DNA from: a virus
UHGV virus genome: UHGV-0116366
Length of the DNA: 31,811 bases
Direction: 5' to 3' (one strand)
Shown piece by piece: positions 27,924 to 28,328 of this stretch. Under the pieces are notes generated by a model that saw only the letters and a program-made list of their open reading frames with translations, ran no database searches and was not told the DNA's origin. The stretch's first letter is position 1; every line of letters starts with the position of its first letter. A program made the translations under genes and the position numbers.

Positions 27924-28032
27924 CCCATCTGTCATGTTCAGTGTAACCCGCCAGAGTGGGTTTTCCACACCCTAACGGGTATGCTATTTTTTATGCAATC
28001 AGAGCGATGATCAGAATGCCGCTGGGGAGAAC

Positions 28033-28224
28033 ATGGATTCAACGCACGACGAAGAAAAACGCACAGAATTTGAAAAATTCATCATTGAAAGGTTTGGCGA
28101 TGCAGTTGATCTCCGCCGGGCGACAAATGGCGATAACGGATATATATCATGGGAGGCAGCGGTTGCCTGGATTGTCTGGCAGGAACGCTCGTTGCATCAT
28201 GAAATAACTTCTGCCGTGGACTGA
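28033..28224 (+). CDS. small hypothetical protein (moron inside tail operon)
   Basis: 63-aa ORF MDSTHDEEKRTEFEKFIIERFGDAVDLRRATNGDNGYISWEAAVAWIVWQERSLHHEITSAVD with GGGGAGA RBS, flanked by a terminator; lies between the tape measure and DNA circulation genes, which are usually adjacent. Confidence 0.45.
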   Translation: MDSTHDEEKRTEFEKFIIERFGDAVDLRRATNGDNGYISWEAAVAWIVWQERSLHHEITSAVD

Positions 28225-28306
28225 GCGGGACGTGAGTTAGGTATAAGCATCGTTTCCGGTTTTGGCTACCATACAGGCGATATGTGAATTCCCATATCGA
28301 TAATTT

Positions 28307-28328
28307 AACCCGCTTCGGCGGGTTTTTT
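28307..28328 (+). terminator. strong rho-independent terminator
   Basis: aacccgc-ttcg-gcgggtt hairpin (UUCG tetraloop) followed by tttttt. Confidence 0.65.

Follow-up and report, generated by a model that had tools for sequence, protein, structure and literature searches.

Why should a small open reading frame (ORF) and a terminator-like hairpin stand in the middle of an essential phage tail operon? The question is raised by UHGV virus genome UHGV-0116366, a stretch of 31,811 nt that was analysed whole and is called the window below. Here the intergenic stretch from the stop codon of the tail tape-measure gene to the start codon of the gene similar to N of phage Mu (27924-28344, 421 nt) holds an ORF for a protein of 63 amino acids (aa), designated ORF63, with a hairpin and a run of T on its 3′ side. 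The explanation that we favour, and hold to be probable, is that ORF63 belongs to a moron-type accessory cassette which an SfV-like Citrobacter freundii prophage carries in a cargo hotspot. The moron concept reportedly comes from Juhala and Hendrix. Its definition and its archetype, gene 15 of HK97, which lies within the tail operon, flanked by the tail assembly chaperone and tape-measure genes, are found in the literature (PMC3594210). By that definition a moron is extra DNA separating genes that adjoin each other in relatives, has a promoter and a terminator of its own, deviates from its neighbours in base composition and is expressed from the repressed prophage.

A cargo hotspot with a resident hairpin

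We compared the junction with those of known phages and of 55 IMG/VR relatives of the N gene for which upstream sequence was available. The gap between the tape-measure and N genes is 4 nt in Mu, 45 nt in SfV, 18 nt in SfII and 15-50 nt in phiP27, ST64B and YeP1, as against 421 nt in the window. Ten of the 55 relatives have empty junctions (gaps of 39-72 nt), five have the same 421-nt insert and 40 carry other cargo, with gaps of 526-691 nt and one ORF of 134-186 aa each. ORF63 is an insertion relative to related tails, as the earlier note on this DNA had proposed, given the empty junctions of 4-72 nt observed in Mu-like tails. The junction, occupied in 45 of the 55 relatives by at least nine unrelated passenger families (ORF63 and at least eight others), is a cargo hotspot. 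The same note had called the flanking genes normally adjacent; that holds for Mu and for most cultured isolates, but not for the present lineage as sampled from genomes, where 45 of 55 junctions are occupied. In the literature we found no description of a cargo hotspot at the tape-measure/N junction; the moron reported in the SfIV paper is another one, located between Q and the lysis genes.

The features of the junction and of its two flanking genes are as follows (RBS, ribosome-binding site; UTR, untranslated region).

26016-27923, plus strand: tail tape-measure protein gene, the left flank of the slot (PF10145, E = 5.8e-40; phrog_17727/phrog_28)
27945-27964, plus strand: hairpin 1, AACCCGC-CAGA-GTGGGTT, then TTTT and CC (-11.9 kcal/mol, z = -3.1)
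27962-27990, plus strand: candidate extended -10 promoter, TTTCCA, 17-nt spacer and TGcTATTTT, with a predicted start near 27997
27965-28032, plus strand: conserved leader/5′ UTR, including the RBS GGGGAG at 28024-28029 (alignment of homologous cassettes)
28033-28224, plus strand: ORF63, 63-aa protein, with GGGGAG 3 bases before the ATG
28225-28265, plus strand: spacer 3′ of ORF63, without a match in the non-tail loci fetched
28266-28328, plus strand: 63-nt unit made of the palindrome CGATATG-TGAATTCC-CATATCG (28278-28299) and hairpin 2, recurring outside tail operons
28307-28324, plus strand: hairpin 2, AACCCGC-TTCG-GCGGGTT, with six T at 28323-28328 (-11.8 kcal/mol, z = -2.5 versus shuffles)
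28345-29646, plus strand: Mu N-like DNA-circulation/baseplate hub gene, the right flank (PF07157, E = 1.1e-32; phrog_184)

Hairpin 2 has the sequence of an intrinsic terminator: a 7-bp stem with five GC pairs, a UUCG loop and six consecutive T. The hairpin that the earlier note had seen 3′ of the ORF (cccgc-ttcg-gcggg and T6) was recovered at 28307-28328 by both a terminator scan and folding, and the scan placed it among the two best terminator-like sites in 20000-31811. What did not survive comparison is the idea that a terminator at this place is unexpected and marks an autonomous insert. A hairpin followed by 6-7 T stands 11-15 nt before the GGAG, and ∼20 nt before the start, of the N gene in 51 of the 55 relatives, including all ten empty junctions, and it is missing only in relatives with minus-strand cargo. 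The hairpin is also present in SfV, SfII, ST64B, YeP1 and EPP-1 and missing from phiP27 and Mu. Its stem varies in a compensatory manner (ACCCGC/GCGGGT in the window, ACCTGC/GCAGGT, CCACC/GGTGG, GCCCAC/GTGGGC and, in SfV, TCCCAC/GTGGGA). Across 20 distinct junctions 96.4% of cells were paired and three of the seven pairs had changed on both sides; this covariation score was matched by none of 500 shuffles, and slid-partner controls were only 31-54% paired. In the SfII record (KC736978, 11928-11966) the depositors annotated the junction element as a putative rho-independent terminator. Since the hairpin is present in empty sites, the terminator was not introduced by the cassette; the terminator-like hairpin is a resident feature of the junction, neither diagnostic of the cassette nor brought by it.

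The earlier note had overlooked hairpin 1 (27945-27962), a weaker member of the same sequence family. This stem-loop is a weak terminator-like element that marks both the left end of the insert and the left recombination joint. A search of 27800-28450 against Rfam at a permissive E-value gave only sub-threshold matches, driven by the terminator, and no known RNA family. Structurally, the cassette has two properties of a moron, insertion between genes that are adjacent in relatives and a putative terminator, though one shared with the backbone. In the explanation proposed here, the backbone carries a conserved terminator hairpin between the tape-measure and N-like genes, and passengers accumulate just upstream of this resident hairpin, which would serve as their 3′ end.

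The other cargo families mostly lack a Pfam match; two have bacterial PH domains, and several proteins have signal-peptide-like or hydrophobic N-termini as judged by eye. No convincing PADLOC match was obtained for the other slot cargoes. Their GC content is 33-40%, compared with about 52% in the backbone. A cargo gene at the tape-measure/N junction is also present in a cultured phage, EPP-1 of Edwardsiella. Cargo with a bPH_2 domain (140-142 aa) was confined to this junction in 19 of the 19 loci retrieved (L107-L125), and a search with a 174-aa cargo returned its own locus only. Four relatives (L013, L019, L031 and L048) have cargo of 145-155 aa on the minus strand, with a hydrophobic N-terminus by eye.

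Two side observations concern these passengers. The bPH_2 cargo keeps 83-100% identity across backbones with N proteins that share only 65-80% identity with that of the window, a pattern that suggests either cargo exchange among related tails or an unusually strong constraint. In L019 the tape-measure stop codon is directly followed by a different hairpin with a T-run.

Expression of the cassette

The promoter and autonomous expression proposed earlier were not confirmed, the best candidate being a sub-consensus site: TTTCCA (27962-27967), 17 nt and TGcTATTTT (27982-27990), which matches 8 of 12 positions and has the TG of an extended -10. Hits of this quality numbered 8 in 63.6 kb (both strands), and ∼0.01 would be expected by chance in the 87-nt leader on one strand. 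The invariant columns of a ten-sequence leader alignment coincide with the TG, T-12, A-11 and T-7. It is plausible that 27962-27990 is a weak extended -10 promoter.

The space separating hairpin 2 from N is too short for a promoter, and therefore the baseplate genes must be transcribed through both hairpins. It is a feature of lambda biology that Q-modified RNA polymerase is terminator-resistant and that terminators are tolerated inside Q-dependent late operons. With promoter activity, termination and Q read-through being what we infer them to be, the weak extended -10 promoter would give rise in a lysogen to a message of ∼330 nt ending at hairpin 2, and ORF63 would be made while the baseplate genes stay silent. 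Upon induction, Q-modified RNA polymerase coming from the late promoter would pass both hairpins, with ORF63 and the downstream tail genes co-transcribed.

One could argue that the passenger has no promoter of its own and is transcribed only within the Q-antiterminated late operon, which would make ORF63 a lytic-phase protein and not a lysogen-expressed moron; in the lambdoid homes of its homologues (described below) transcription would likewise come only from antiterminated early transcription through nin-type terminators. The lack of a consensus sigma-70 promoter in 27924-28032, the Q gene of the window and the cassette GC content near that of the backbone all agree with this, as does the fact that the lambdoid homologues, like nin-region genes, belong to the rightward early operon and lie downstream of a terminator-like hairpin. 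However, the 68-nt leader is conserved well above its flanks and has invariant bases on the key positions of the extended -10 element, which is hard to explain as spacer. We regard the promoterless alternative as possible, and as the most serious of the competitors.

Less likely still, in our estimate, is that the junction hairpin acts mainly as an element for mRNA stabilization or processing, or as a structure that uncouples N translation and sets it, with its T-run and terminator look being secondary. Its constant position, 11-15 nt before the N GGAG in all lineages including those with empty junctions, would fit such a role, and so would its location in an operon with essential downstream genes that lack the space for their own promoter. 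Yet the hairpin has all the features of an intrinsic terminator (5-7 bp GC-rich stem, tetraloop, 6-7 T directly after) and hairpins of the same family end small genes in lambdoid early regions. Terminators in Q-dependent late operons are tolerated, and terminator and non-terminator roles are not exclusive.

ORF63 and the early-region origin of the cassette

ORF63 is a real coding gene under purifying selection: among 11 homologues the median pairwise ratio of non-synonymous to synonymous substitution rates (dN/dS) was 0.16 in frame, as opposed to 1.14 and 1.33 in the two shifted frames. This value, together with the GGGGAG, upholds the earlier note in its description of a 63-aa ORF with its own RBS between the tape-measure and DNA-circulation genes. 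An overlapping 83-aa ORF (27956-28207) was ruled out, the shifted frames having dN/dS >1. The ORF63 protein is acidic (7.4 kDa, isoelectric point 4.7). The exact 63-aa protein was indexed in 265 blocks and counted on 112 contigs, under the name Citrobacter freundii; the order sheath, tube, chaperone, tape measure, ORF63, N and P was observed in 10 of the 10 NCBI contexts shown and likewise on one 1.5-kb metagenome contig.

Sequence comparison indicates that ORF63 is a stand-alone copy of a ∼50-aa module of Eaa/Ea22/DUF551-type proteins, with the consensus DER.AFE.FM..RFGD.VD.RRAKNGD..YMAWDM.VAWIVWQ.RA. The close family consists of 18 clusters, mostly from Citrobacter, and a profile search started from it found 214 clusters at 50% identity that hold the module, usually as part of proteins of 100-340 aa. 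The module takes the following positions in the 167 family members retrieved.

N-terminal: 30 of 167
Internal: 71 of 167
C-terminal: 31 of 167
Stand-alone (90 aa or less; 58-90 aa): 35 of 167

DUF551 is C-terminal to the module in three proteins (P0022, P0023 and P0025), and PF13935 (Ead_Ea22) is present in P0028, a longer protein that also holds the module. In cultured phages the module is found in proteins annotated as Eaa, Ea22 or DUF551-containing, including SfV orf28, which adjoins xis; the module in Eaa/Ea22/DUF551-type proteins has 45-58% identity to ORF63 (tblastn). ORF63 itself matched neither PF13935 nor PF04448 (DUF551), nor any Pfam family at E <= 0.1, and nothing was found for it in NCBIfam, PADLOC or PDB sequences. 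Its match to phrog_660 (function unknown) is weak (E = 2.7e-4, profile positions 101-137 of 193), and distant module-bearing proteins match the same family at 1e-10 to 1e-21; ORF63 therefore corresponds to one sub-region of phrog_660. No second copy of the module was detected elsewhere in the window.

AlphaFold2 predicted, at moderate confidence, a helix, a β-hairpin and a helix, with a predicted local distance difference test score (pLDDT) of 74 when 50 diverse module sequences were used; an initial model built on 19 close sequences was poor, with a pLDDT of 63.5. The name ‘DNA-binding protein’, given at NCBI to the N-terminally truncated variants P0014 and P0018, was rejected, as it had no support from profile models and the protein is acidic. 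It has been reported that Ea22 proteins are pro-lysogenic and have portable C-terminal domains of unknown mechanism (PMC10834534). Because ORF63 is acidic and occurs as a shuffled module of Eaa/Ea22/DUF551-type early proteins, we infer, with low confidence, that it could modulate some host or phage process by binding to protein and would not be a virion component.

A residence mostly within proteins of 100-340 aa could also mean that ORF63 is a functionless recombination scar, the decaying fragment of a larger Eaa/Ea22-type gene. The spacer at 28225-28265 resembles by eye the degraded 3′ end of a larger gene, and it may be the decayed end of a lambdoid early gene such as that at 5880-5910 of locus L076, a likeness that is weak and without statistical support. 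The C-terminal tail of ORF63 also differs from that of the lambdoid homologues. Still, dN/dS is 0.16 in frame and >1 out of frame, stand-alone versions of 58-90 aa make up 35 of the 167 family members, the leader and RBS are conserved and the identical protein is present on >100 contigs, all of which makes a scar very improbable. As for a structural or assembly role that is particular to this kind of tail, the position between two tail genes on the same strand invites the thought, yet ORF63 is missing from 50 of the 55 relatives and from SfV, SfII, ST64B, YeP1 and Mu, and the slot elsewhere holds unrelated genes, so we give this next to no credence; with five carriers among the 55 relatives, and homologues in lambdoid early regions, the view of the earlier note that the ORF is accessory stands.

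Those homologues, the other close relatives of ORF63 (73-85% identity), all lie away from tail genes. E. coli PSJ-22 and three Citrobacter contigs have the homologue in lambdoid prophages, with O/P-type replication genes on one side and DinI/NinG/Q on the other, and another one is situated in a prophage remnant, adjoining a YdcA-like 55-aa gene. Five further loci from Citrobacter species representatives (79-85% identity) have no tape-measure or N gene within 6 kb; a sixth Citrobacter locus, L069, gave a partial match of 26 residues.

The homology extends to DNA. With nine cassettes from lambdoid contexts it begins at 27944-27946, at the first base of hairpin 1, and extends through leader and ORF to about 28203-28227; the tail of ORF63 at its C-terminus is unlike theirs. 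Identity to these cassettes is 68-81% in the leader, as against only 22-45% to the left of the hairpin; hairpin 1 is the point where four different upstream contexts meet. On the other side, copies of the unit 28266-28328 with 90-92% identity are present in 17 other IMG/VR contigs, in places outside tail operons. In L076 the palindrome and hairpin unit lies 3′ of a 263-aa early gene and is followed by tiny genes, each ended by a copy of the hairpin. Hairpins of the same family were observed 2-3 times per locus in lambdoid early regions, flanking mini-cassettes.

At the left joint the window follows the empty-site locus L039 through the 3′ end of the tape-measure gene and 21 nt past its stop, up to AACCCGC, and then follows the lambdoid cassette; backbone identity with L039 ends inside the stem of hairpin 1. 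At the right joint it is the lambdoid palindrome-plus-hairpin unit that the window matches as far as hairpin 2, and then the L039/SfV backbone (TTTTTTATG.CCGGAG...ATGGCGTGGAAAGAC), with homology to the backbone of SfV/SfII and L039 resuming at about 28301. The two-sided alignment therefore places both crossovers within a shared hairpin sequence of roughly 20 bp. The simplest reading of the joints would be short-homology recombination between the resident terminator and the same-family hairpins that flank a mini-cassette of a co-resident lambdoid prophage.

Put in terms of the moron-type cassette, the passenger is a 63-aa acidic protein with relatives that normally lie in the replication-to-nin or exo-xis regions of lambdoid prophages, where hairpins of the family AACCCGC-NNNN-GCGGGTTTT stand between small genes. 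The cassette would have entered by recombination within the ∼20 bp of shared hairpin at both ends, which would leave one hairpin on each side (27945-27962 and 28307-28324). That such hairpins are reusable recombination joints of cassette exchange, and that ORF63 at the same time defines a widespread module of ∼50 aa outside any curated family, is a broader claim that we advance tentatively. If true, short-homology or possibly hairpin-specific recombination would move promoter-ORF mini-cassettes between functionally unrelated phage modules, in this case out of a lambdoid early region and into a Mu-type tail operon, and the resident terminator would thereby become a cargo hotspot.

A number of observations weigh against this account. 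A complete donor (hairpin, leader, ORF63, spacer, palindrome, hairpin) was not found: the palindrome 23-mer occurred in 17 non-tail contigs, none with ORF63 adjoining; P0014, a variant with the same C-terminus as ORF63, was absent from the contig index; and 28204-28265 had no match in any of the non-tail loci fetched. Assembly of the cassette may have taken more than one step. Also, the lambdoid loci showing the hairpin recurrence were partly chosen via hairpin-adjacent sequence, which inflates the apparent recurrence. The GC content of the ORF63 cassette (47.5%) barely differs from that of the tail operon (52.4%), unlike that of the other cargoes. The consensus scan of 27924-28032 gave no sigma-70 site at 9 of 12 matches. 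Read-through by Q, plausible because there is a Q antiterminator gene in the window, is argued by analogy with lambda-type biology, and termination at hairpin 2 would follow from that biology together with the sequence features. The ORF63 model had no fold match in PDB, and its BFVD matches were homologous uncharacterized phage proteins only.

Several side observations were made at the lambdoid loci. The palindrome at 28278-28299 has perfect 7-bp arms and an 8-nt spacer, and it was also seen at L076 5981-6003 and L004 4461-4493; it could be a second 3′-end RNA hairpin or a protein-binding site. Arrays of tiny genes, each bounded by a CCCGC-NNNN-GCGGG-T-run hairpin, are present at L076 5960-6460 and L106 3600-4010; the array genes include a 55-aa YdcA-like peptide (with a signal-peptide-like N-terminus) and an ORF63 homologue. 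In L004 a gene pair for an AAA_15/AAA_21 ATPase and a DUF4435 protein (6010-7914) lies ∼0.8 kb downstream of the ORF63 homologue; we take this to be the domain pair of PARIS-type defence systems. The pair suggests that the donor region is itself a zone of accessory or defence genes.

Prophage context and comparison with known systems

The window is a temperate prophage of SfV/ST64B architecture that combines lambdoid regulation with an HK97-type head and a contractile tail of Mu type. Three genes mark its regulatory and integration functions.

1033-2229, minus strand: integrase gene
3052-3678, minus strand: gene for a CI-like repressor with helix-turn-helix (HTH) and S24 domains
10727-11089, plus strand: Q-type antiterminator gene (PF06530, E = 1.6e-53)

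The window also has CII-like, replication, Dam, C5-methylase and antirepressor genes. Holin, terminase, portal, protease and HK97-type capsid genes are present, and the contractile tail genes of Mu type include those for sheath, tube (PF10618), chaperone (PF10109), tape measure, the N-like hub, P, and the gp45 and gp46 homologues. The N-like gene most likely starts at ATG 28345 rather than at ATG 28330, because GGAG is present 5 bases upstream (28336-28339) and relatives align from residue 1; the rejected ATG 28330 overlaps the T-run of the terminator. ORF callers and some database records (e.g. SfV orf15) begin the N-like gene at the upstream ATG.

Other observations lie away from the junction. 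A putative abortive-infection gene (PF16872 putAbiC, E = 2.3e-18) at 200-1036, just beyond the integrase gene at the prophage end, is likely, from its domain match, to be defence cargo. Tandem DNA methyltransferase genes are located in the early region at 5766-8637, a Dam-type gene (PF05869) and one for a 665-aa C5-cytosine type enzyme (PF00145); in locus L005 a similar 624-aa methylase adjoins the ORF63 homologue on its upstream side. A third hairpin of the same family, AACCCGC-TCT-GCGGGTT, was found at 21769-21785, with T-runs on both strands and a bidirectional look. Directly 5′ of it is a 100-aa ORF (21468-21770), without a Pfam match, between the major capsid and head-tail connector genes; ORF and hairpin may represent a second slot for cargo or, alternatively, a decoration gene together with its terminator.

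The cassette is a clear but ordinary example of a moron, which extends the concept and overturns no current ideas. What is new is modest: the tape-measure/N hotspot with its covarying resident terminator, the early-region origin of the cargo and the mapping of both joints inside a hairpin. It would provide a base-level example of how a moron can enter an essential operon harmlessly, by landing in, and duplicating, a terminator that does not stop antiterminated polymerase. In SfV/ST64B-like prophages the tape-measure/N junction is a place to look for passengers, at least nine families of them, mostly AT-rich and of unknown function, with several that by eye look secreted or membrane-bound; candidate roles for them, in Citrobacter, Escherichia, Shigella and their relatives, are superinfection exclusion or host fitness. 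The shuffled module of ∼50 aa in lambdoid early proteins, now outside curated families, merits a family definition.

With the morons of lambdoid phages the cassette shares extra DNA between late genes that are adjacent in relatives, one small ORF with its own RBS and a downstream terminator-like hairpin, a position in the tail operon of a Q-regulated temperate phage, and relatives with different cargo at the same place. It differs from them in that its promoter is a sub-consensus candidate, its GC content is barely off that of the backbone and its terminator is resident, not brought by the insert. Unlike HK97 gp15, a membrane protein, ORF63 would be a cytoplasmic acidic protein from the phage early region.

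The putative terminator annotated in SfII (KC736978, 11928-11966) has the same position and structure as hairpin 2, with compensatory changes in the stem (TCCCAC/GTGGGA versus ACCCGC/GCGGGT in the window). The junction of SfII/SfV is empty, whereas the window has a 362-nt insert between the tape-measure stop and hairpin 2, as well as a degenerate copy of the hairpin at the left end.

Proteins of the Eaa/Ea22/DUF551 type, encoded in the exo-xis and nin regions (SfV orf28; Ea22 of Stx phages, PMC10834534), share the ∼50-aa module of ORF63 at variable positions. Unlike them, ORF63 is the accompanying unannotated module alone, and it lies in the tail operon, not in the early region.

Finally, Clark et al. 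are said to have described, in 2001 and for HK620, nin-region terminators or conserved gene-boundary sequences of lambdoid phages. Like those boundaries, the junction has short conserved boundary sequences at mosaic joints and terminators that antiterminated polymerase would pass. Unlike them, the hairpin family of the window links a lambdoid early region to a Mu-type tail, and both joints of one insertion can be placed inside the hairpin.

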